NCBI GenBank assembly: GCA_023247085.1
Contig: JAHFHC010000003.1
Coordinates: 3,407-67,406, forward strand
Source: Candidatus Micrarchaeota archaeon
Lineage (GTDB): Archaea; Micrarchaeota; Micrarchaeia; Norongarragalinales; UBA8480
Direction: 5' to 3'
Length of the DNA stretch: 64,000 nt
Part shown: positions 1,348 through 18,923 of the stretch, in pieces
Layout: each line of letters starts with the position of its first letter
How positions within the stretch are numbered: position 1 is the first letter of the stretch
Position numbers and translations under genes: made by a program
The notes under the pieces: model-generated
The model's input: the letters and a program-made list of their open reading frames with translations, nothing else
Told to the model about the DNA's origin: nothing
The model's database searches: none

Positions 1348-1791
1348 TCATCTTTTTTCCGCGATTTCGCTCAACATCCTATCAAGCTTTGAATCCACTT
1401 CTTCAAAGCAACGCATGCCGAGAAATAACCGGAATTTCTTCCGCGTTTCCACATCAGCAACGCAATCAAACCGCAACAGCAACTCGGCAAGTTGTGCGGC
1501 TCTTTCGTTTCCAGTTCTGTCAAAATCGAACAAAATAACTGGCTTTTGTTGCGAGGCAATTATGCGTTTTGCAAGTTGCTCTTTGCCGCCATTTGCTTCT
1601 ATTATCGAGGCAGTTAAACCTACATTCCTAAGGGCAGCCTTGTCGCGTTTGCCTTCAACAAGCAACACAACCTCGCTTGCATTAAGCTTGGCAACTAGCT
1701 TATCTAAGCCTGCCAACTTTTTTTGAAGCAATTCACCGTTCATGTGTTTCGTCATATCCGAGATATTTTTTATGCAAAAACTCCCGGGCAA
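1348..1791 (-). CDS. Small stand-alone Toprim-domain protein
   Basis: VLLVEGKRDKAALRNVGL...VILFDFDRTGNERA is a Toprim signature (E...DxD). The true start is probably the internal Met of MTKHMNGELL. Confidence 0.45.
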   Translation of the reverse strand: MPGSFCIKNISDMTKHMNGELLQKKLAGLDKLVAKLNASEVVLLVEGKRDKAALRNVGLTASIIEANGGKEQLAKRIIASQQKPVILFDFDRTGNERAAQLAELLLRFDCVADVETRKKFRLFLGMRCFEEVDSKLDRMLSEIAEKR

Positions 1792-1965: not shown

Positions 1966-2406
1966 CTAATACACTTTTAGCTTTTGTGCTAATGGCATTT
2001 GTGGCGATTCGCTTATTAAATCATAAAGCGAGGGCGCTATGGAAATAAGGTCTTTTTGCGAAACTACGCCAACTATTTTACCTTGTCGAATTACGGCAAG
2101 TCGCTTGATATTTTTTATCCCCATTAGCTTTGCAGCTATGGAAATATCTTCGGTTATCTGAATCGTTATCAAGTTTTTTGTACATATATCTCGAACCAAA
2201 TAATTGGTTTTTCCAGTTGCAAGGACTTTAGACACAAGATCTCGCTCGGTGATTATGCCGCATATTCCCTTGGCGCTTGAAAACACCAAAAGGCTACCTA
2301 CCCCAGTTTCAGCCATTTTCTTAGCGGCGTCAACAACGGAAGTTGATTCAGGCACAGTTACAAGCGAAGTCTTCATGCAGTCGCCAACTTTTATCCCTGT
2401 TTCCAT
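1966..2406 (-). CDS. CBS-domain pair protein
   Basis: Two CBS-like repeats (VGDCMKTSLVTVPESTSVVDAAKKMAETGVGSLLV... and LITIQITEDISIAAKLMGIKNIKRLAVI) in 146 aa. Confidence 0.55.
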   Translation of the reverse strand: METGIKVGDCMKTSLVTVPESTSVVDAAKKMAETGVGSLLVFSSAKGICGIITERDLVSKVLATGKTNYLVRDICTKNLITIQITEDISIAAKLMGIKNIKRLAVIRQGKIVGVVSQKDLISIAPSLYDLISESPQMPLAQKLKVY

Positions 2407-2600
2407 ATTTTTACTAAATTACCATTTTAACATTTTTTGGCTAAAAGCGTGTTAAAAATCAAAACTAATTCTAAGTCACGCTATTAAACATCTAACACAC
2501 ATTTGAAAGAAGGACATATTTATAGCTAAGGTACTGGGCGCAATCTATAGTACGCGACGCCACACAGGGCTAATTAATCTCTATCACCTTTAGATTCCTT

Positions 2601-3134
2601 ATGGGCAAAGGGGCTTATTTGAAGGGCGCACGGTTTGAACGCCAACTAAAAGAAATGCTCCGCAGTCGTGGCTTTTGGGTTATACGTTCCAGCAAAAGCG
2701 GAGTAGATGGTTTAGCCCCGGATTTAATTGCACTTAGCATGAATCGAAAATTTGCGTTAGAATGCAAAGCTTGGAAGGCAAATTTACATTTTGAAAAACC
2801 CAAGATGCAAATTATGAAGGAGTTTGAAAACACAACCGGAATCCCTTTTTACATTGCATGGAAACAACCAAGAGAAGACTGGCGGTTTTATCCATTATCT
2901 GCACTTAAAGAAACTACTCGCGGCTATACGCTTGTGCTTTCTGACTTAAAAATGGGAATGAGATTAGCCGATCTTACTGGAGAAGAGTCGAAAACCCTAC
3001 AAAACACGCTAACAGATTTAACTAATAGTGAGTTACAATCAATAACGTTAGAAGAAGCCGAAAAACCAGAGAAAACGTCGCCAGACGTAAATTCAGAAAC
3101 AACCCCCGCTAATTCTACGACAAACGACAGATAA
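2601..3134 (+). CDS. hjc: Holliday junction resolvase Hjc-like nuclease with acidic/Ser-Thr-rich C-terminal extension
   Basis: GARFERQLKEMLRSRGFWVIRSSKSGVDGLAPDLIALSMNRKFALECKAW matches the Hjc/restriction-endonuclease-fold core (E...GxD...ECK). The ~45 aa C-terminal tail is atypical. Confidence 0.5.
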   Translation: MGKGAYLKGARFERQLKEMLRSRGFWVIRSSKSGVDGLAPDLIALSMNRKFALECKAWKANLHFEKPKMQIMKEFENTTGIPFYIAWKQPREDWRFYPLSALKETTRGYTLVLSDLKMGMRLADLTGEESKTLQNTLTDLTNSELQSITLEEAEKPEKTSPDVNSETTPANSTTNDR

Positions 3135-3188
3135 ATACGACTAGTTTGTTACTACCGGTAAGTTTATAAATTACTTATTGCATAAGTA

Positions 3189-3578
3189 TTGCAGATCAAA
3201 ATGACAAGTTTATCACCATCTCAAATGGCAAAAATGAAAATTGGACTAGTGGAAAAGAAAGCCGCACCTAAACCGGAAGAGGACGTAGTTGTCATGCCTG
3301 CTTTCGTGCCAACTAAGATGAACAAAGGAGAAGGAATTCTCGAAGTTACAACTCGTCAAAAATACTTAAATGAAGGATACGCAGACTGGATTAACTGGCA
3401 CCTATACCGCATAATTGGAATAGGCTCAGCAGTTGCTGCTTTGTTTTTAATTGGAATAAACTTGTGGCTAGCTGCTGGCGCAGGAGCTATAGCCGGACAT
3501 TTTTATTCAGAACACGTTAGAATCGCAAAGAAAATCGCAGTAAACTACTCAAGGAGAAGGCTCCTATACACAAGGTAA
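3189..3578 (+). CDS. Small membrane protein (soluble N-domain plus one C-terminal TM helix), member 1 of tandem array
   Basis: ORF with one hydrophobic helix (IIGIGSAVAALFLIGINLWLAAGAGAIAG). It is co-directional and tightly spaced with the next five ORFs. Confidence 0.3.
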   Translation: MQIKMTSLSPSQMAKMKIGLVEKKAAPKPEEDVVVMPAFVPTKMNKGEGILEVTTRQKYLNEGYADWINWHLYRIIGIGSAVAALFLIGINLWLAAGAGAIAGHFYSEHVRIAKKIAVNYSRRRLLYTR

Positions 3579-3588
3579 ATGAAACACT

Positions 3589-3975
3589 ATGGCATTAAGC
3601 GGAATCAAAGGAACAGTCGTTGACGTTGTAAAGGATATTCGACAGAATACTCCTCTTAAAGTGGAAAAAAAAGAGGAAACGGTCAAGACAAGTGAATTTT
3701 ACACTGGCGCTTTGAGTAGAGGTAGTGATAACGTATTAGGACAATGCACTAGAAAAGAATTCATAAACGAGTTCATTGATTTTTGGAAGGACGATTACCG
3801 TGCAAAAGCGAAATGCATTTGTTTTCTAGCAATAGCTGCATTGACATTCAATATAATGGCACCATTTTCACTTTTTTGCATTGCACTTGCAGCAAAGTAC
3901 TGGGATTGGGCAATGTGGTGCAGAAACATAGCTAGATTCAATGGAAACTTCCGTACAATCATATACGGACAATAA
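3589..3975 (+). CDS. Small membrane protein, array member 2
   Basis: C-terminal hydrophobic segment CICFLAIAALTFNIMAPFSLFCIALAA. It starts 11 nt after the previous ORF. Confidence 0.3.
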   Translation: MALSGIKGTVVDVVKDIRQNTPLKVEKKEETVKTSEFYTGALSRGSDNVLGQCTRKEFINEFIDFWKDDYRAKAKCICFLAIAALTFNIMAPFSLFCIALAAKYWDWAMWCRNIARFNGNFRTIIYGQ

Positions 3976-4077
3976 GAAAAGAAACAACAAAAGTACAAAA
4001 CACAAACAAAAAATAAAAAAAATCGAAAAATAAAGAAAATCAAAGATAAACACAAACAAAATCAAGGTAAAAAAAAT

Positions 4078-4467
4078 ATGTCAAGTGATGCACTGCATGA
4101 TGCGAAAATGTCTTTCGACGCTCCGACCCTCGGCGTGAGCGAAAGGCTAGAGGCCGTTGGAAAGAGCATAGCTCCAGCTTTTGGATTAGAAGGATTTTCA
4201 ACCATTTTACAGAGACTAGCTAGGAACTTCGCAGCGTTGCTTGAATATTACAAATTAGCCACAGTTGTACGCCACAAAGACATTAGTTTTCCAGATGGAA
4301 TGAGCAAACACATATTTTTCTTCGACGATAAAATAGTCAATGCGACGATACTTTTAGGGTGCGGAATAGCAATCATTTCACAGCCTTCTCTCCTATTGCC
4401 ATTAGCGCTAGTAGCCGTTGCTTATTTTGGCAGCGATAAATTCTTAAAAACGGTTGAAAAGTTATGA
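4078..4467 (+). CDS. Small membrane protein, array member 3
   Basis: C-terminal TM segment ILLGCGIAIISQPSLLLPLALVAVAYFG. Its stop overlaps the next start (ATGA). Confidence 0.3.
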   Translation: MSSDALHDAKMSFDAPTLGVSERLEAVGKSIAPAFGLEGFSTILQRLARNFAALLEYYKLATVVRHKDISFPDGMSKHIFFFDDKIVNATILLGCGIAIISQPSLLLPLALVAVAYFGSDKFLKTVEKL

Positions 4468-4967
4468 CAATGAAAAATAACAAAGTACAAACAATCAAAG
4501 AAATAAAAGCGGCAATGACAAAAGCTGCGTTAGCAAAGACAAAGGCAGCGCCAGCTTCAGGTCCGGCAGATGTAAAGAAGACTTACATGACCATACCATA
4601 TTACACGCCATCTGACAATGTAGATATCAACAACTTAACCGAAGCACAGAAAAAGAAGTTAATTCAACAAGGAAAACTCATGGGTAGCGGAGACCCAATA
4701 ACCATTGCTAAAATAGATAACCGTAAAAATACCTTGAACGCTTGGTGGGATGCAAGTGACTTCACTTACGACGCCGGAACGTCATACAAAGCATGGACAT
4801 ACACTTGGGCGTATCTCGCATTAACAATAATTTCTTACGTATTCATACACCCACTCGCAGCAATCCCATTTGCCTGGAAAGTTGGGCACAATTGGAGCCA
4901 ATACGTCGGCGGATTAGTATTCGGAAAAGAAGACATGAAAGGAAAGACACTATACCACACAGTATAA
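4464..4967 (+). CDS. Small membrane protein, array member 4
   Basis: Lys/Ala-rich N-terminus and a Trp/Tyr-rich segment followed by the TM helix WAYLALTIISYVFIHPLAAIPFAW. Confidence 0.3.
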   Translation: MTMKNNKVQTIKEIKAAMTKAALAKTKAAPASGPADVKKTYMTIPYYTPSDNVDINNLTEAQKKKLIQQGKLMGSGDPITIAKIDNRKNTLNAWWDASDFTYDAGTSYKAWTYTWAYLALTIISYVFIHPLAAIPFAWKVGHNWSQYVGGLVFGKEDMKGKTLYHTV

Positions 4968-4985
4968 GAAAGAGGTTGATGAAAA

Positions 4986-5291
4986 ATGACTGAAAACATT
5001 CCAAAAGCATATGACAAGCTCATCAGAGCCACCACAGTAGGATCAGAACAGCCTATTGCGCTCCAAGCAACAAACCGTTGGGCCTACATGGAAAAGTACA
5101 TGAACGATTTTGAAGACATGTTAGCATTCGATGTAAACCAATGGATACTAGCAGGAATAGGCGCAGTGCTCTTACTAATGGGAAACGTACTCGGGGTAAT
5201 AGCACTAGCGGGCGCTACATATTACAGAATTCAATATAAGCACCGTTATGGCCAAGTAAACTCATCTCGTAGACTAATACTTGGAAACTAA
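4986..5291 (+). CDS. Small membrane protein, array member 5
   Basis: TM helix ILAGIGAVLLLMGNVLGVIALAGATYY near the C-terminus. Confidence 0.3.
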   Translation: MTENIPKAYDKLIRATTVGSEQPIALQATNRWAYMEKYMNDFEDMLAFDVNQWILAGIGAVLLLMGNVLGVIALAGATYYRIQYKHRYGQVNSSRRLILGN

Positions 5292-5310
5292 AACCAAAAT
5301 GAGGCGCACT

Positions 5311-5457
5311 TATGTCAACTGAATTTGAATTAATCACATATGCAATCCTGGCAATTGCGCTGTTTTTACTTTTTAATCACTTTTTACCACTTCGCCGAGC
5401 CCAGAATGCAAAAGAAAAACCAATGGCAAAAATGGATCTTAATAGTAGGATAATTTA
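5311..5457 (+). CDS. Very small membrane protein (48 aa), array member 6
   Basis: The ATG at 5311 gives MSTEFELITYAILAIALFLLFNHFLPLRRAQNAKEKPMAKMDLNSRII. It is below the 60-aa cutoff of the ORF track. It has the same orientation and architecture as members 1-5. Confidence 0.25.
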
Positions 5458-5532
5458 AAATACCAGGCGCCATAACCGCAAAGTTGGTTTAACCTGGCGG
5501 TGTTTTTAATCTCCTACACCTAAATTTTTAGC

Positions 5533-7125
5533 GTGAAGCGCAACTTTATTTTCGTTACTGGCGGCGTACTATCCTCCCTAGGTAAAGGCATACTTGCATC
5601 ATCTATTGGAAAAATCCTAAAGGACAAAGATGAACACAACGTTTCACTAATGAAAATAGACCCTTACCTCAATTGCGATGCAGGCACATTGAACCCATTT
5701 GAACATGGGGAAGTCTTTGTAACACGCGATGGACAAGAATGCGATTTAGACCTAGGCAATTACGAACGCTTTTTGAACACTTTTGCAATTAACGAACAAA
5801 ACTTAATGATGGGAGACGTTTACCGCGAACTTGTTGAAAAAGAACGACGCGGAGACTATCTTGGCAAAACCGTACAATTGATTCCACACGCTACAAATGA
5901 AATCAAAAAACGAATACGCGCATGCGGTGAAAAAACCAAGTGCGATACGCTGATAATAGAAATAGGCGGCACAGTAGGGGATATCGAAAGTGAAGTGGTA
6001 TTAGAAGCGAGTAGACAAATGAAATACGAAGAAGGCAACAACGTGCTATTCATTCACTTAGCGCTACTGCCCACTATTCTAACTGGCGAAGAAAAAACTA
6101 AGCCAATGCAACACTCAGTAAAGGCATTACAAGCAAGAGGCATTACCCCCGACCTATTAATAGGAAGAACAAGCGACAGCATGGCTGCAGAGTCAAGGTC
6201 AAAACTAGCATTGCAATGCAACGTAAACGCAAGCGATATTTACTATTCACCAAACGCACCAACCATTTACAAATTGCCACTCTTATTGGAAAAACAAGGA
6301 ATCGATAAAGCAATTGGCAATAAACTGGGATTTGAAATTCTAAATGGCGAAACATTTGAACAATGGAAAAAACTAGTTGACCAACTAGAATCAGCCTCTG
6401 ACGAAGTAAATATAGCTGTAATCGGCAAATATGCAACTAGTAAAGATGCTTACATGAGTTTATTCGAAGCGCTTACACACGCGGGAGTTGCAAATAAAGT
6501 TAAAATTAAAGCGGATTTAATTGACGCAACAAAAATAGAAAAGGAAAGCGTTAAACTCAATGATTATCACGGCGTAGTGATTCCAGGCGGATACGGCAGC
6601 CGCGCAGTTGAAGGCAAAATAAAAGCAATTCAACACAGCCGCGAAAATAACGTTCCTTTGCTCGGAATTTGTTACGGCTTTCAACTATCTATAGTTGAAA
6701 TTGCACGAAACATACTTGGCTGGACGGATGCCAATACAACTGAAATCATCCCAGATACAAAACACCCCGTTATTGACTTGTTACCTGAACAAAAACAAGT
6801 CAAGGATAAAGGCGCAACCAACAGGCTCGGCGCAAAGAAAACACTAATCGAAAAAGAAACAATGGCATTTGCAATGTACAAACAAGAAAACATACTAAAG
6901 CGATTCCGTCACAGGTGGGAAATGAACCCAGAATATGTTCAAGTGATGCAAGATGCAGGAGTGGTTTTTTCTGGAGTTGATGAAAGTAAAACTATTAAAA
7001 AAGTGCTTGAATTGAAAAATCACCCGTTCTTCTTTGGAGTACAATATCACCCAGAATTCGACTCTCGATTAGAAAAACCAGAAGAATCTTTTACAAAGCT
7101 AATTGAGGCGAGCAAAAAATGCTAA
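5533..7125 (+). CDS. pyrG: CTP synthase
   Basis: The N-terminus KRNFIFVTGGVLSSLGKGILASSIGKIL and the glutamine amidotransferase domain with LLGICYGFQL...H are present. Length is 530 aa. GTG start. Confidence 0.9.
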   Translation: MKRNFIFVTGGVLSSLGKGILASSIGKILKDKDEHNVSLMKIDPYLNCDAGTLNPFEHGEVFVTRDGQECDLDLGNYERFLNTFAINEQNLMMGDVYRELVEKERRGDYLGKTVQLIPHATNEIKKRIRACGEKTKCDTLIIEIGGTVGDIESEVVLEASRQMKYEEGNNVLFIHLALLPTILTGEEKTKPMQHSVKALQARGITPDLLIGRTSDSMAAESRSKLALQCNVNASDIYYSPNAPTIYKLPLLLEKQGIDKAIGNKLGFEILNGETFEQWKKLVDQLESASDEVNIAVIGKYATSKDAYMSLFEALTHAGVANKVKIKADLIDATKIEKESVKLNDYHGVVIPGGYGSRAVEGKIKAIQHSRENNVPLLGICYGFQLSIVEIARNILGWTDANTTEIIPDTKHPVIDLLPEQKQVKDKGATNRLGAKKTLIEKETMAFAMYKQENILKRFRHRWEMNPEYVQVMQDAGVVFSGVDESKTIKKVLELKNHPFFFGVQYHPEFDSRLEKPEESFTKLIEASKKC

Positions 7126-7559
7126 CTATTTACACGGACAAACACTGCGAAAAAGTTGCGCAAGCAATTGCAAGTGGCGCAAGTAACGTGGAACACAAAA
7201 TTACAAAAATTCCGGAATTCACTGAACAAAATGTATTGTGCATTGCAAAGAAGCCATTTGGAAATGAACTAAAACAAATAGCAGACAAACTGATTGGCGC
7301 AGTGTACGTGGTGGGGGTCGGATTCTCTTTCGACAAAATGAGAAAGATGATTGAAGAATTACAAAAAGACCAGCCAAGCATAAAGGTTGAAGTGACTCTC
7401 TGCCTTAAGCGTAAAGGCACACTACCATTAGGGGGAGAAGTTACAGAAATCGAACTTGCGCGCGTATCTGCCCTTGGCGAACGAATTGCTACAACAATAA
7501 CTGGAACACGCCAACGCCCACAAAACGAAAAAAACAGAATACAAAACTACAACAAATAG
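7119..7559 (+). CDS. Hypothetical protein overlapping pyrG stop
   Basis: 146-aa ORF that overlaps the pyrG 3' end by 7 nt (ATGCTAA). I recognise no motif. Confidence 0.3.
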   Translation: MLTIYTDKHCEKVAQAIASGASNVEHKITKIPEFTEQNVLCIAKKPFGNELKQIADKLIGAVYVVGVGFSFDKMRKMIEELQKDQPSIKVEVTLCLKRKGTLPLGGEVTEIELARVSALGERIATTITGTRQRPQNEKNRIQNYNK

Positions 7560-14340: not shown

Positions 14341-14823
14341 TCAAGGTACCACTCTCGGTTTTCCTTGAATTTTCTTTTGTGGGATGAAGTTGGCAAAGTA
14401 TTTTGCTGCTTCGCTGTTTAGCGGCGAATACGGATTTGGGTTTTCTAGCATTTGCAGTAGCGCTTCGGCAATGCTTGACAGCGTTTGTGATTCAGTCCAG
14501 GAATTTAGCACTTGAATGCAAACTCGACCGTCTTTTGGCCGGATATTTGGGTGAAATATGTCACTGTCCCAAATTACTTCAATTCCGCCGGCGTACGGGT
14601 ATTCGCGGGTTAAGTAAATTGAAATGTTGTGGCTGTTGATTGGCACAACTGCGTCGCCGTTTTTAGTGTAGCCGCGCCCATTTAGCTTAAAGTGGTACTC
14701 GGTTTTATCCAGGTTAACTTCTAAGTCGGAAATGTGGTTGTTCTTTGAAAGCGAGGCAAATTCGTTGTCTAGCCTGCGCTTCCAAACCCCTTCAGGTAGC
14801 TTTGGCATAAGTGTTGGCTTCAA
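14341..14823 (-). CDS. Ubiquitin-conjugating enzyme E2 (UBC fold)
   Basis: The UBC core motif FHPNIRPKDGRVCIQVLNSWTESQTL (HPN...C...W) contains the catalytic Cys. Length is 160 aa. The start overlaps the stop of the upstream Ub-like gene by 4 nt. Confidence 0.7.
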   Translation of the reverse strand: MKPTLMPKLPEGVWKRRLDNEFASLSKNNHISDLEVNLDKTEYHFKLNGRGYTKNGDAVVPINSHNISIYLTREYPYAGGIEVIWDSDIFHPNIRPKDGRVCIQVLNSWTESQTLSSIAEALLQMLENPNPYSPLNSEAAKYFANFIPQKKIQGKPRVVP

Positions 14824-15065
14824 CCTCCTGTTGGGTCTGGCATTAGTAAGAGGGTTTCGCCTTCAGTTACGCCCGCATCTTTAAGCTGTACTTCTGGAGA
14901 CAAAATTTTATTGTCTGATGCCTTTGCTAGCACGAACCGGTCTTTTAATTGAAGCGAATCAACCAGCACATCTAGTACAGCTTGAACTGTGAATTCGGGT
15001 TCAACTGCTAGTGTGATTTCTTTTCCGCTTGTTGTGTGTGAAACCTTTATGTTAAATTCAGCCAT
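14820..15065 (-). CDS. Ubiquitin-like beta-grasp modifier ending in Gly-Gly
   Basis: 81 aa: MAEFNIKVSHTTSGKEITLAVEPEFTVQAVLDVLVDSLQLKD...GETLLLMPDPTGG, then stop. A C-terminal diglycine directly precedes the stop codon. It is co-transcribed with the E2. Confidence 0.7.
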   Translation of the reverse strand: MAEFNIKVSHTTSGKEITLAVEPEFTVQAVLDVLVDSLQLKDRFVLAKASDNKILSPEVQLKDAGVTEGETLLLMPDPTGG

Positions 15066-15129
15066 TTTCTTTCAATAAACGTTTACGGCGCAAAAGTTTA
15101 TTATGCTTAGCGACCAGTCTTTTTAACTT

Positions 15130-15420
15130 ATGTGCAGTTGTTACTTAATTATGTCAAAGCCACGCATTTTAGATGTAAAGAAACCCGAAAAAAAACCAAC
15201 TGTAGTTAATATTGAAGAAGACGACTATTCGCGCATTTTAACGCCAGTTGACCCCGTTACACAAAAGTTGCGTGAAGGACAACTAAAAGACGCTATTCCA
15301 CAACAACCCGCATTTTCTCCGCTTGGCCTTGATCCAGAAGTTAGAAAAAAAATTGAAGAAGACCGAAAAAAGAGGCGAGGGTTAGTGGGAGAAGTCAAAG
15401 ACGCGTTTGGGGTTAAGTGA
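15130..15420 (+). CDS. Hypothetical charged, probably disordered protein
   Basis: Lys/Glu/Pro-rich 96-aa ORF. The likely start is the MSKPRILDVKK Met at 15157. It is divergent from the Ub-E2 operon. Confidence 0.25.
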   Translation: MCSCYLIMSKPRILDVKKPEKKPTVVNIEEDDYSRILTPVDPVTQKLREGQLKDAIPQQPAFSPLGLDPEVRKKIEEDRKKRRGLVGEVKDAFGVK

Positions 15421-15423
15421 GAG

Positions 15424-16185
15424 ATGCCGCTTGAATGGAAAACAACCAAATTGCTTACGCTGAACGGGCGCGTAACTGTCACTCACTGGAAAAAGCACTC
15501 ACCACGTGCCTTGCTTGCTGCACTTGAAAGTGAACCATTAAAAAAATTTCCCAGATCCACTCCGCCTGTTTGGTTTCATAAGTTTGCTGGTCAAACCGTT
15601 GTCGTCCGAGCTACTGCGCCGCACGGATTATCTCACCCAATTCTCGGTGGTACAGAAATTGAATGTATGCCGCCAAAGCAAATTTTTGAAATTCTTAAGG
15701 AGTTAGCAGAAAAAAAAGCAGCGTTTGTTGAAGTGCCTGTTGCTTTGATTGAGGGAAAAACCTTTCACGCGGTAGTTACTCTTGCTAAGCCGCACCGCGC
15801 TTCGCTTCAAGAGGTATTATCCGCTGACGATGTTTCTGAATTTAAAAAACAGGCGTTGGCAGTAAAAGCGATTAAGTTGTTTGCCCGTTTAAACGCGCTT
15901 GGGTATAAACATAATCATCCCGACCCGGTAAATGTAGTTGTTATGAAGAATGACGGAGTTAGGTTAATTGATCCAACTTTACTTGAGCGCTTTCCAAAGG
16001 AGGGGCCGTGGCGTATAGAAAGTATAGATTCTCGCGCAAGATTGTTGCAACCATTTATGAACATTTGGCTTAGAAACCACCCTGGGCAGGATTATCCAAT
16101 AGAACATTTGCATGGCTTAATACGTGAGCTGGATTCAGCGTACCATACCGAATTTAAGCGGGTTAAGGCGAAACAACGTGTTTGA
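15424..16185 (+). CDS. Hypothetical protein with atypical kinase-like C-lobe (RIO/Bud32/Kdo-kinase-like catalytic loop)
   Basis: ALGYKHNHPDPVNVVVMKNDGVRLIDPT resembles the H-x-D-x4-N ... D-loop of atypical kinases. I see no glycine-rich loop. Confidence 0.3.
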   Translation: MPLEWKTTKLLTLNGRVTVTHWKKHSPRALLAALESEPLKKFPRSTPPVWFHKFAGQTVVVRATAPHGLSHPILGGTEIECMPPKQIFEILKELAEKKAAFVEVPVALIEGKTFHAVVTLAKPHRASLQEVLSADDVSEFKKQALAVKAIKLFARLNALGYKHNHPDPVNVVVMKNDGVRLIDPTLLERFPKEGPWRIESIDSRARLLQPFMNIWLRNHPGQDYPIEHLHGLIRELDSAYHTEFKRVKAKQRV

Positions 16186-16651
16186 CATTTACATTCATGC
16201 TAGTGCAGTGCAAAAAGCTGAAGAGTACTTTTCTGTGTTAGCGGCTTCAAAATTAGAGGGGTTAGGGCTCTTGGTCGGCAGCAATTTCGAATACGAGGAT
16301 GCTAATTATTTGCAAATAGTCGATTTTATAACTGGCGAGACAAACTCTTCGGCTGTTTCAGTGAGTTTTTCCAAACACGCATTTGAGAAACTAGCCGGCG
16401 ACTTAAAAGAACGTGATGAAATTGTGGTTGGCTGGTGTCATTCTCACCCAACTTATGGTTGCTTTTTATCCGCCACTGATGTAAATGCGCAGCGTAGTTT
16501 TTTTAATGAAGATTTTCATGTTGCCGGCGTGTTTGACCCAATGCGCAAAGAAGATTTCGGCAGCGTAAATGCAATGGCGAAGCGTTTTTACAGGTTGACT
16601 GATAAGGGGTATAGGGAAGTTTCGTTTGCGGTGGTAAAAGATGTCAAGTGA
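16124..16651 (+). CDS. JAMM/MPN+ metalloprotease (Rpn11-like deubiquitinase/isopeptidase)
   Basis: VGWCHSHPTYGCFLSATD is an exact JAMM motif HxHx7Sx2D, with an upstream Glu. The track start overlaps the previous ORF. The true start is probably the GTG near 16176 (V/MFDIYIHASAV). Confidence 0.7.
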   Translation: MSWIQRTIPNLSGLRRNNVFDIYIHASAVQKAEEYFSVLAASKLEGLGLLVGSNFEYEDANYLQIVDFITGETNSSAVSVSFSKHAFEKLAGDLKERDEIVVGWCHSHPTYGCFLSATDVNAQRSFFNEDFHVAGVFDPMRKEDFGSVNAMAKRFYRLTDKGYREVSFAVVKDVK

Positions 16652-17612
16652 GTTACAAACTATAAATTCCAATAAGCCCAATGCCGTAAAGTCGGTTGGA
16701 GAAAAGGAAAAACAAAGTACAGCCAAGCCAATTTCAACGACCCCGTCGGCGCAATCCACCGCTGAAGAAAAACCTATTTCAACAGAGAAAAAGAAGCGCG
16801 GCCGCAAACCAGTTTTTAAGCCAACTCAGTTTGACTTGGATTTAATTCATTTAATTCGCGAAGGGGCAACTTCAACTGATGAGTTATTGTATGGTTTAGG
16901 AGTAGCGCGTTCTGAATTAATTCAACGTTTAGATTTATTAAAAACGGAAAATTTAGTGGCAGAAGAAAAAGACGGTGCAAATTTGCAGTTTGGGTTAACT
17001 GTAAACGGGTATAATTTTTATGCTTCTAAAGGGGCGAAAAAAGTCGGCCTCAAAAAATCTTTTTCTGGCGAAGTAAAGTTATACAAGCATAAACAAATTG
17101 AAAAGCACGACGCGATGCCAGTGCAGGGGCAGAAGCACGTTAATGATTTTCTTTCGTCAACTGAGGTGGTTGACCTTGGGGGAAAATTAGGTAGGATGGA
17201 TTTAGAGGAAATAATAAAACGCTATGGCCCGTCAAGCGAACAAAAAGATAAGTTCTTGCGTCAAAAAGCAACCGAGATCAACCAGGAAAAAAAGCAGGTT
17301 CAACCACAAATCCAGCGCCCAGTTCAGCAACCGACGCTTGCAAGTCCAATTGCTGCCGCGCAACCAGTTGCAGGCAATGTAAATTCTTCCGACATTTGTG
17401 ATTTGTGCAAATCGGATTTCAAGATGTCGATGAATAATCCCGAGCTAGCAAAATACGGGCATTGTTTTTGCGGTGCAGCTTACCACAAGGAATGTTACGA
17501 TTCGCTTCTTTCAGATAACGCCAAGTGTATTCGTTGTGGCAAAAAATTATTTTTGATTGTAGATAAACAAAGTCGAGAGGCAATAAGTGGGTTAAGGGAC
17601 GCGTTTGAATAG
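16641..17612 (+). CDS. Zinc-finger protein with C-terminal C4HC3 (RING-variant/PHD-like) finger and N-terminal basic AT-hook-like plus winged-helix-like region; candidate E3
   Basis: The C-terminus CDLCKSDFKMSMNNPELAKYGHCFCGAAYHKECYDSLLSDNAKCIRCGKK fits C-x2-C-x18-C-x-C-x4-H-x2-C-x10-C-x2-C. The N-terminus has KKKRGRKPVFKP. Confidence 0.5.
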   Translation: MSSELQTINSNKPNAVKSVGEKEKQSTAKPISTTPSAQSTAEEKPISTEKKKRGRKPVFKPTQFDLDLIHLIREGATSTDELLYGLGVARSELIQRLDLLKTENLVAEEKDGANLQFGLTVNGYNFYASKGAKKVGLKKSFSGEVKLYKHKQIEKHDAMPVQGQKHVNDFLSSTEVVDLGGKLGRMDLEEIIKRYGPSSEQKDKFLRQKATEINQEKKQVQPQIQRPVQQPTLASPIAAAQPVAGNVNSSDICDLCKSDFKMSMNNPELAKYGHCFCGAAYHKECYDSLLSDNAKCIRCGKKLFLIVDKQSREAISGLRDAFE

Positions 17613-17681
17613 AAGTGCTTAATTCAGGTTTTCATTCTTATGCCCGAAAGCCTTTTTATTTAAAAAAGGTGTTGCACTTAC

Positions 17682-18155
17682 ATGGTTTCAAAAATTTCAA
17701 GGTTATCTGCAATTAGAAAAGCAATCCGCTGGACTAGAAATGGAGTTGACTGGCATTTTCACTTATTATCCCCTGGCTGTTTGTATAACTCAACTCGCGA
17801 GCATGAATTGTTCCTAGAGTCGAAGTTTGGGGCATTTGTTGCGCGCTCTTGGCGCTCGTTGGTAACAATTGCAAAACATTTGCTTCATTTATTAGAAAAA
17901 CGAAATGTGAAACGAGTTTCTGCTTCTTCTGCACTTGGAATAGGGAAAGTTTTACTTCAAGCAAAGCATTTGAATGACAAGAAAATCCGCTGGCACCACC
18001 ATTTGCTTTACCCACATTGTGTGCTGAACAAAAAGCGCGGCAAATGGGCTATTATTTTTGAAGACCCGCTGAACAACAAAGTTACTGAATTATTTTACTC
18101 CAGTTATCCCGGCAAAGATTTGAATAAATTAGAGTTACTTTTTTACAAGCAATAA
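17682..18155 (+). CDS. Hypothetical protein with internal duplication of a W-H-x-H-L-L-x-P-x-C motif
   Basis: IRWTRNGVDWHFHLLSPGCLYN and IRWHHHLLYPHCVLN are two copies of one module with conserved His/Cys positions. Confidence 0.3.
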   Translation: MVSKISRLSAIRKAIRWTRNGVDWHFHLLSPGCLYNSTREHELFLESKFGAFVARSWRSLVTIAKHLLHLLEKRNVKRVSASSALGIGKVLLQAKHLNDKKIRWHHHLLYPHCVLNKKRGKWAIIFEDPLNNKVTELFYSSYPGKDLNKLELLFYKQ

Positions 18156-18167
18156 TTTTAGTATTAG

Positions 18168-18923
18168 CTAATGCACGGGGCAACTGTTTCTCTTTTCAAT
18201 TGTGAATATGTTTGTTTGTCCAGTTAGCCCGTTGTAAAATGTGTATTTTCCAGCCAAAGTCGTTCCAGTTTTTAGTATTAGTTTAACGAATTCATTTACT
18301 TGCATGCCTGCAATGACGCTTGTTGTTGTTGGCAACGCTGGCATTTTTGGGTCTATAATATCGAGCATTTCTCCTACGCACGAGTATTTTTTCCATAGCA
18401 AACCATAGTCTTGTTTTGACAATCCACATTCGAGACAAGCGGCTGGTGCTTGCACTACTTGCAATTTACCGAGAAACCCGCTTGTGCCGCCGTCAATTAA
18501 GATGACTTTGCCATAACAATTTGCATTAACGTGCAGCCGCGCCCCTAAATTATCTAGACAGCCGAATACAGCATCAAAACCAGAGAAAAATTTATCGTCA
18601 AGTGCCTCAACGTTTTTTATAATTGGGGTTACAACCGCCGCTGGATTGAGTTTTTTAGCTGCGAGACTGAGCGCTTCGGCTTTTAGTGCCTTGTTTTCTG
18701 CATCGTTTTGTGTAAATAACAGGCAGCGGTTTAAATTTGCTTTGACAACTGTGTCGAAGTCAATAACAGTAAGCTGGCAAACGCCTAGTTGCAGCAAATT
18801 CTTAGTCACTTCATTGCCTAATGCGCCAGCGCCGACAATACAAACCTTGGCACTCGCGATTTTTTCTTGATTCCAACCCGCAACGCGCTTTTGCCGATCA
18901 AACTGGTCATCATCTACATTCAT
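18168..18923 (-). CDS. E1-like ubiquitin-activating enzyme (ThiF/MoeB/UBA family)
   Basis: KVCIVGAGALGNEVTKNLLQLGVCQLTVIDFDTVVKANLNRCLLF is the Rossmann ATP-binding E1 signature. A CxxC pair (CLECG) follows. Length is 251 aa. Confidence 0.7.
   Translation of the reverse strand: MNVDDDQFDRQKRVAGWNQEKIASAKVCIVGAGALGNEVTKNLLQLGVCQLTVIDFDTVVKANLNRCLLFTQNDAENKALKAEALSLAAKKLNPAAVVTPIIKNVEALDDKFFSGFDAVFGCLDNLGARLHVNANCYGKVILIDGGTSGFLGKLQVVQAPAACLECGLSKQDYGLLWKKYSCVGEMLDIIDPKMPALPTTTSVIAGMQVNEFVKLILKTGTTLAGKYTFYNGLTGQTNIFTIEKRNSCPVH

Follow-up and report, generated by a model that had tools for sequence, protein, structure and literature searches.

A conserved cluster of small genes in Micrarchaeota predicted to encode helical-hairpin membrane proteins

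What is encoded by six small genes of a Candidatus Micrarchaeota archaeon that lie in a row between the genes of an Hjc resolvase and of CTP synthase (pyrG)? DPANN archaea such as the Micrarchaeota are ultrasmall, mostly uncultured and host-dependent, and their distinctiveness is mostly hidden in hypothetical proteins. The six genes, called o1 to o6 here, are found on contig JAHFHC010000003.1 within a stretch of 64,000 nucleotides (nt) (positions 3,407-67,406, forward strand), which we call the window and from the first letter of which all coordinates below are counted. The relatives of its pyrG and the names carried by homologous proteins likewise assign the window to a metagenome-assembled genome of a Candidatus Micrarchaeota. 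An earlier reading of the sequence alone (the sequence-only reading) had seen in them a tandem array of small tail-anchored membrane proteins, either a paralogous family or a small membrane complex, and had named a secretion or pilus-like apparatus, a toxin/immunity set and a viral remnant as examples. Our analysis indicates that o1 to o5 are better described as predicted helical hairpins, that by profile comparison o1, o2, o4 and o5 are paralogs of a family not previously described, and that the cluster and a promoter-like element in front of it are conserved in 15 lineages.

All six open reading frames (ORFs) are read from the plus strand and are tightly packed, and the coordinates and spacers first given for them were confirmed: o1 at 3201-3578 (125 amino acids (aa) from an ATG codon, the ORF reaching back to a TTG codon at 3189 to give 129 aa), o2 at 3589-3975 (128 aa), o3 at 4078-4467 (129 aa), o4 at 4464-4967 (167 aa), o5 at 4986-5291 (101 aa) and o6 at 5312-5458 (48 aa). 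The spacers are, in order, 10, 102, -4, 18 and 20 nt, the negative value being an ATGA overlap of o3 and o4. The 102-nt spacer (3976-4077) is made up of degenerate A-rich repeats of low complexity, as had also been described. Its length and sequence vary among relatives (2 nt in locus L003, 53 nt in L004 and L014, and 25 nt in L015) and we therefore rejected it as a functional element; an Rfam scan of window positions 2400-5700 gave no match.

A public gene caller also predicted all six ORFs and placed the start of o1 at ATG 3201 (125 aa). The GC content of the cluster (0.37-0.43) is the same as that of its flanks. In comparisons with relatives, in which synonymous sites were near saturation, the ratio of nonsynonymous to synonymous substitution rates (dN/dS) was 0.10-0.31 for o1 to o5 (0.23-0.31 for o1 and 0.12-0.25 for o5), with a single o3 pair at 0.41, 0.34-0.47 for o6, which is under the weakest constraint of the six, and 0.07-0.13 for pyrG. 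The o1 to o5 genes are under purifying selection. Taken together, the public gene calls, the conserved gene order described below and the dN/dS ratios argue that o1 to o6 are real genes and not chance ORFs.

The proteins encoded by o1 to o5 each have a hydrophobic stretch of 28-37 aa, which a conserved polar turn interrupts (G-I-N in o1, F/W-N in o2, S-Q/N-P in o3, H-P in o4 and G-N in o5). It is followed by a tail of 9-26 aa that is polar and for the most part basic. A long hairpin is common to the AlphaFold2 models of o1 and o4. In the o4 model (25 sequences) the hairpin consists of helices 107-128 and 130-156, with predicted local distance difference test (pLDDT) scores of 89-97 at residues 111-140 and 77 at residues 141-150, and a C-terminal strand (163-166) is placed alongside a strand of the N-domain (81-84). 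The o1 model (42 sequences, mean pLDDT of 73) begins with a helix (6-17), from which a linker of low confidence (18-51) leads to hairpin helices 52-83 and 88-118. Hydrophobicity is restricted to the distal ~16+15 residues of each hairpin, and the proximal halves are amphipathic.

The proposal that each of the six proteins ends in a single hydrophobic helix, and is thus tail-anchored, does not agree with these data. We regard o1 to o5, on the strength of the models and the turn and tail sequences, as helical-hairpin proteins rather than tail-anchored proteins, and in o6 the layout is reversed, the hydrophobic helix being N-terminal and the C-terminus polar. With tail-anchored proteins o1 to o5 would share an apparent lack of a signal peptide, a soluble N-terminal part that is predicted to be cytoplasmic and a hydrophobic region near the C-terminus, but they differ in having two hydrophobic segments arranged as a hairpin and a conserved tail. 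The only member that looks like a true tail anchor is the short o3 of L020 (7733-7963), L023 (3157-3369), L026 (6449-6664) and L027 (1859-2116), a protein of 70-85 aa that ends after one hydrophobic helix. By eye, the N-termini of o1 to o5 are not hydrophobic and the hairpin flanks are basic, the C-flanks of o1 and o5 carrying up to +6. Given these basic C-flanks and the apparent absence of a signal peptide, we infer an N-in/C-in topology in which both termini of the hairpin proteins would face the cytoplasm.

Are the hairpin proteins related to one another? Shallow alignments were insufficient to decide this. With three orthologs per gene the signal was weak, with 10-12 sequences per gene it was partial (hhalign probabilities of 72% for o1-o5, 60% for o2-o5 and 3.7% for o1-o2), and it became clear after distant orthologs were added. 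The final profiles, built from 15-20 orthologs per gene assigned by position, gave hhalign probabilities of 97.6% for o1-o4 (E 4e-12), 97.7% for o2-o5 (E 2e-12), 96.9% for o1-o5 (E 2e-10), 94.7% for o1-o2 (E 6e-8), 81% for o4-o5 (E 1.2e-5) and 50% for the weakest pair, o2-o4 (E 1.6e-4), versus at most 7.4% (E at least 0.0047) in the reversed-sequence controls. Among the six-frame ORFs of the window and the related loci, hidden Markov models (HMMs) of o1, o2 and o5 matched each other and nothing else, and the o1 HMM matched the gene at the o4 position of L020 at 7e-13. An exhaustive HMMER search with the o4 profile against 1.84 billion cluster representatives returned 21 proteins only, including distant homologs of 128-177 aa that bridge o4 to o1 by means of (Y/F)VPM, GKPVHxxDhTTR, hNxYhAAVFAYLTGHFWSE and a C-terminal W(F/W)KGKxLhxTx.

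In an alignment of 42 sequences from the o1, o2, o4 and o5 groups, the Arg of the "TR" motif is invariant and an Ala and a Gly of the second helix are nearly so. These four groups share a collinear set of motifs: hPhFVP, then G..PV..h.T-R with the invariant Arg, the polar-turn hairpin, a small-xxx-Gly motif with an aromatic pair, and a common tail of ~23 aa ending in K/R-x-h-h-x-T/G-x. By these profile and motif comparisons o1, o2, o4 and o5 are paralogs, for which we define a "Micrarchaeota hairpin" superfamily. The o3 protein was rejected as a further paralog at the current sensitivity, its hhalign probabilities with the other members being at most 5.7%, within the range of the reversed controls, and o6 falls outside the motif definition of the superfamily. 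Each member occurs exactly once in the window, and no further copies are scattered through it, which fits distinct subunits of fixed stoichiometry and not a redundant expanding family.

Each member also has motifs of its own. In o1 the N-terminal helix and a disordered linker are followed by MPxFVP, TTR, the hairpin, AGHFYSEH and the tail RRxLLYTR, and in o2 GQxTRxEYINEFIDFW leads into the hairpin, which is followed by KYWDxAxWxRNIxRFNGxFR. The largest hairpin paralog, o4, has 28 invariant columns among 25 sequences and contains PYYTPSD, an invariant Arg, the hairpin, AWKVGHNWxQY and a C-terminal GKEDMKGKxMYxT. The smallest, o5, is composed of VGxEQP, ATxRWxYMxKY, the hairpin, YY and SxRRxILGN. 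The o3 protein has a helical N-terminal part, an invariant Asp ahead of the hydrophobic region, a C-terminal hairpin and conserved motifs that are its own, and o6 combines the N-terminal helix motif LFNxFxPL with a polar tail. Gly/Ala-rich helices are found in o1 (GIGSAVAA) and o5 (AAGAGAIAG), and these glycine motifs are not kept in o2 or o4.

The absence of a recognisable motif noted in the sequence-only reading held up in searches against known families. None of the six proteins matched Pfam, and Pfam, NCBIfam, PHROGs and PADLOC together gave nothing consistent or significant for them. No Pfam match was obtained with 27 family members at E values up to 1, and the best PHROGs matches (E 0.016 or worse) were to families of unknown function. 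Neither a PDB sequence search nor Foldseek against the PDB gave a significant match, and literature searches found no description of the family. None of the curated families and solved folds searched includes this family, which is undescribed. Its newness is meant in this sense, and the claim does not extend to mechanism.

As the sequence-only reading had recommended, synteny was compared in related genomes. The order o1-o2-o3-(o5')-o4-o5 is the same in 15 lineages (pyrG identity 55-82%). The cluster is found in this order in L003 and L004, where pyrG is ~75% identical, it is also present in L008, L009, L011, L016, L017 and L018, and the order is kept in the distant loci L020, L021/L022/L025, L023/L026 and L027, in which pyrG is 55-60% identical to that of the window. 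Locus L020 is a 1.3-Mb contig, its copy being labelled Candidatus Micrarchaeia. In L005, which is equally distant, the cluster is not adjacent to pyrG within the 18.7 kb covered. Both L023 (3382-3684) and L026 (6661-6951), which stand for one distant lineage, have an extra o5-like hairpin paralog between o3 and o4 and thus six hairpin-type genes. The o6 gene is confined to the clade of the window, and L023 and L026 have possible analogues at the same position. The single-pass peptides that follow o5 (window 5312-5458, L023 5059-5157 and L026 7917-8180) have N-x-x-x-P at the helix end (FNHFLP, LNLLLP and ANTIFP), a pattern that is common to them despite undetectable sequence similarity. A model of o6 matched no ORF of at least 40 aa after o5 in L008, L011, L016 or L021.

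This distribution bears on the proposal of a viral remnant, a toxin/immunity set or some other mobile accessory module, for which the sole support is that the proteins are small, hydrophobic and unannotated. The divergence of the cluster tracks that of pyrG, its chromosomal position is fixed among housekeeping genes and its GC content is that of the flanks, so there is no compositional anomaly; these are properties of a core, vertically inherited and syntenic locus. The lack of PHROG and PADLOC matches speaks against the proposal as well, as do scans of IMG/VR viral contigs, which contained no relative, a tblastn search of 50,697 phage records (INPHARED), which gave no match, and Foldseek against the BFVD viral structures, which gave nothing at E <=0.001. 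A mobile origin is already contradicted and we consider it extremely unlikely, which disposes of two of the examples that had been offered, the toxin/immunity set and the viral remnant.

Conservation extends to noncoding DNA. A candidate operon promoter located at 3145-3173 (plus strand; TTTGTTACTACCGGTAAGTTTATAAATTA) is composed of an upstream element, a sequence like a transcription factor B recognition element (BRE) and a TATA box. The consensus TGTTACTACCG..AAGTtTATAaAT (also written TGTTACTACCG..AAGTTTATAAAT), of 24-26 nt, is found 5' of o1 in 15/15 lineages, though the proteins of these lineages share only 30-60% identity. Each locus has a single copy, and no other is present in the rest of the window or of the loci (~300 kb). 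In the window the element spans 3147-3171 and its position and TATA-like sequence suggest a BRE/TATA promoter that is preceded by an additional conserved site. The core of the element, TACCGGTA, is an 8-bp palindrome in most lineages, and a palindromic core beside a TATA box suggests a site for a dedicated regulator.

The element also bears on where translation begins. Its TATA-like part stops 29 nt before ATG 3201, and the usual archaeal spacing from the TATA box (3163-3171) would put the transcription start near 3193-3195. Thus, translation of o1 most likely starts at ATG 3201 rather than at TTG 3189. Shine-Dalgarno-like sequences (AGGT or GAGG(T)) precede o2, o3, o5 and o6, and o4, which starts within o3, has only a weak GGTTGA. 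At the other end of the cluster a T-run element, GTGTTTTTAATC (5500-5511, plus strand, with the T-run at 5503-5507), lies ~22 nt before the GTG start codon of pyrG at 5533. It is kept as GTGTTTTTAAGC in L004, L009, L017 and L018, in the context GTGTTTTTAA(G/T)C, and judging from its sequence and place probably ends the o1-o6 operon and serves as the TATA-like box of a promoter belonging to pyrG. The fixed gene order, the tight or overlapping spacing and the single conserved promoter fit co-expressed subunits, and we infer that o1 to o6 are transcribed as an operon.

What might such an operon build? We put at about even chances the reading that o1 to o5, and perhaps o6 too, are transcribed together and supply the subunits of a single hetero-oligomeric complex of helical hairpins, specific to Micrarchaeota, that sits in the membrane and faces the cytoplasm. 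The predicted complex could serve as a membrane scaffold or anchor, as a channel or for docking, roles between which the data do not discriminate. In such a complex the one conserved promoter would drive the operon, the first gene having little or no leader, and each protein would be inserted without a signal peptide, its N- and C-terminus remaining on the cytoplasmic side. The membrane would hold two hydrophobic segments of ~15 residues each, linked by the tight polar turn, and the amphipathic halves of the two ~30-residue helices would form a stalk that reaches ~25-30 Å into the cytoplasm. Where this stalk ends, the conserved N-terminal motifs (hPhFVP and G..PV..h.TR, the latter with the invariant Arg) and the conserved C-terminal tail (K/R-x-h-h-Y/h-x-T-x) may pack together or on neighbouring subunits, and the conserved N-terminal helix, carried on a disordered linker of 20-60 aa, would be free to recruit a cytoplasmic partner.

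Several observations weigh against a single complex. The o3 protein is not homologous to the others and in four lineages is reduced to one helix, several lineages lack o6, and L023 and L026 have a sixth hairpin paralog; hence the subunit composition is not fixed. The confidence of the AlphaFold2 models is only moderate beyond the hairpin (mean pLDDT of 66-73). Moreover, the conserved order could partly reflect slow rearrangement of the region, as RadA, Hjc, CBS and pyrG are also syntenic. The original suggestion of a paralogous family or a small membrane complex is upheld in part: o1, o2, o4 and o5 are homologous by profile comparison, and order, spacing and promoter fit co-expressed subunits, but no relationship of o3 to the others is detectable and o6 is weakly conserved and clade-specific.

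The variation in composition can also be accommodated if there is no joint assembly. Each hairpin protein could work alone or as a homo-oligomer, tethering a different cytoplasmic partner to the membrane, in which case the cluster would be the product of tandem duplication and shared regulation. Independent adaptors of this kind would account for N-terminal regions that differ among the paralogs and are conserved inside each orthologous group, for the disordered linker and N-terminal helix of each protein, and for the extra o5-like copy, the truncated o3 and the optional o6 of different lineages. However, the strict order, the overlaps and the single promoter have survived deep divergence, and the best conserved regions are the hairpin, the stalk next to the membrane and the C-terminal tail, where mutual packing is expected, and not the N-terminal regions. 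We consider independent adaptors a possible but somewhat unlikely explanation.

A hetero-oligomeric complex of hairpins would have architectural counterparts. The FliP/FliQ/FliR export gate and the c/c'/c'' ring of the V-ATPase are hetero-oligomers of paralogous helical hairpins, and by analogy the adjacent o1-o5 genes may likewise encode related hairpins that pack into one assembly. The differences are that o1 to o5 gave no Bac_export or ATP-synt_C profile match and that the cluster has neither a conserved membrane carboxylate nor associated ATPase or motor genes. We did not adopt a 5:2 stator-like arrangement of the five hairpins with the single-pass o6, because the stators known are homopentameric and carry a membrane carboxylate, and because not all lineages have o6, which several lack. 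Mic10-type and reticulon- or stomatin-type hairpins are membrane-shaping proteins of eukaryotes or bacteria. The resemblance to these would lie in small size, a short hydrophobic hairpin that enters from one side of the membrane and the Gly/Ala-rich helices of o1 and o5, but no homology was detected and the glycine motifs are missing from o2 and o4.

A further possibility is a pore or channel, in which a heteromeric ring of hairpins would carry a polar ring at its outer tip, much as in the two-helix pore of CorA/Mrs2 or in a class II holin-like protein. For CorA/Mrs2 (MIT superfamily) the likeness, a C-terminal stalk joined to a two-helix pore module, is one of structural analogy only. There was no CorA profile match, and the turns of o1 to o5 (G-I-N, F-N, S-Q/N-P, H-P and G-N) lack GMN. 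Class II holins (two helices, N-in/C-in) have the same small size, two membrane helices and charged C-terminal tail, but o1 to o5 have no PHROG holin match and no endolysin or phage context, and they are core, syntenic and phylum-wide, falling into five distinct conserved orthologous groups. We regard a pore as quite unlikely.

The idea of a hetero-oligomeric complex can be taken further, to a Micrarchaeota-specific membrane machine in which a ring or bundle of five hairpin subunits, possibly built around a single-pass peptide, acts as a channel, membrane-remodelling or docking device that is central to the ultrasmall, host-dependent lifestyle and is switched on via the unusually conserved promoter element. 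This picture is speculative and in our estimate unlikely; if it were true, the machine might serve lipid or metabolite exchange at the contact with the host. A five-gene operon that lies among housekeeping genes, keeps its order in every Micrarchaeota lineage sampled and has its own conserved promoter element is a strong candidate for a lineage-defining membrane structure. Definition of the family, its motifs, its predicted fold and its cis-element turns these anonymous small ORFs into a testable target.

As first described, the cluster is flanked upstream by Hjc (2601-3134; Pfam 1.3e-15) and downstream by pyrG (5533-7125, plus strand, GTG start). The latter serves as context only and we claim no functional link between it and o1 to o6. 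The emphasis that had been placed on Hjc was not supported. Hjc is not adjacent to the cluster in L011, L020, L021/L025, L023 or L027 and is ~4 kb upstream in L026, and a functional link of the cluster with Hjc was rejected because the adjacency is not conserved. The neighbours that recur instead are pyrG, which follows the cluster in most lineages, and a flavodoxin-like gene. In the window the latter is a divergent ORF of 146 aa (7119-7559, plus strand) that overlaps the pyrG stop codon. The 146-aa protein matched the PDB flavodoxin 1fld at E 0.027, and one member matched Pfam Flavodoxin_3 and Flavodoxin_5 at ~1e-3. The gene directly follows o5 in L021 and L025 and lies 2.3 kb beyond pyrG in L020.

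The neighbourhood also provides the one weak lead to a pilus-like or secretion apparatus, another of the examples that had been offered. If o1 to o5 were an accessory or platform part of a type IV pilus-like system, or of some other apparatus for secretion or at the cell surface, pilus genes nearby would be in keeping, and in L021/L022/L025 the cluster and the flavodoxin-like gene are directly followed by a prepilin peptidase gene (Peptidase_A24/Arc_PepC) and then by 5-6 small genes encoding class III signal peptides (MKGQ..., MKAQ...; 9239-12796 in L021 and 8236-11807 in L025). This link is seen in one lineage only. By eye, no class III (pilin) signal peptide is present in o1 to o5, whose N-termini are polar, and the [KR][GA] cleavage motif is missing from o6 (MSTEFELITYAIL...). 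A crude regular-expression scan of window ORFs of at least 70 aa, for which o6 with its 48 aa is too short, found no pilin-like N-terminus. The called genes within ~10 kb of the cluster include no secretion ATPase or prepilin peptidase, the rest of the window not having been scanned for a secretion ATPase, and the soluble parts of the proteins are predicted to be cytoplasmic. A role in such an apparatus is, in our view, very unlikely.

Some observations concern other genes of the region. The Hjc of the window has, as had been noticed, an odd C-terminal tail, a low-complexity extension rich in Thr, Ser, Pro and Gln (residues ~125-177). Among orthologs the tail varies in length and sequence or is absent, Hjc being 129 aa long in L009 and 126 aa long in L005 and L026. 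The RadA gene of L009 (1-1741) encodes 828 aa, which include an intein bearing a LAGLIDADG homing endonuclease domain; the RadA of the contig that carries the window is intein-free (319 aa). Between the genes of DnaG primase and a CBS-domain protein lies a small stand-alone Toprim-like ORF (1348-1791, minus strand; 135-147 aa), which matched Pfam Toprim at ~1e-3, under the curated cut-off, and is conserved in L004.

Farther downstream the window contains a eukaryote-like ubiquitin gene set (14341-18923). It comprises genes for an E2 (UQ_con; 14341-14823, minus strand; Pfam 5.9e-18), a ubiquitin-like protein of 81 aa that ends in ...PTGG (14820-15065, minus strand), a JAB/MPN protease (16124-16651, plus strand; 2.6e-10) and a ThiF/E1-like enzyme (18168-18923, minus strand; 3e-47). 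Ubiquitin operons of this kind are known from a few archaeal lineages.

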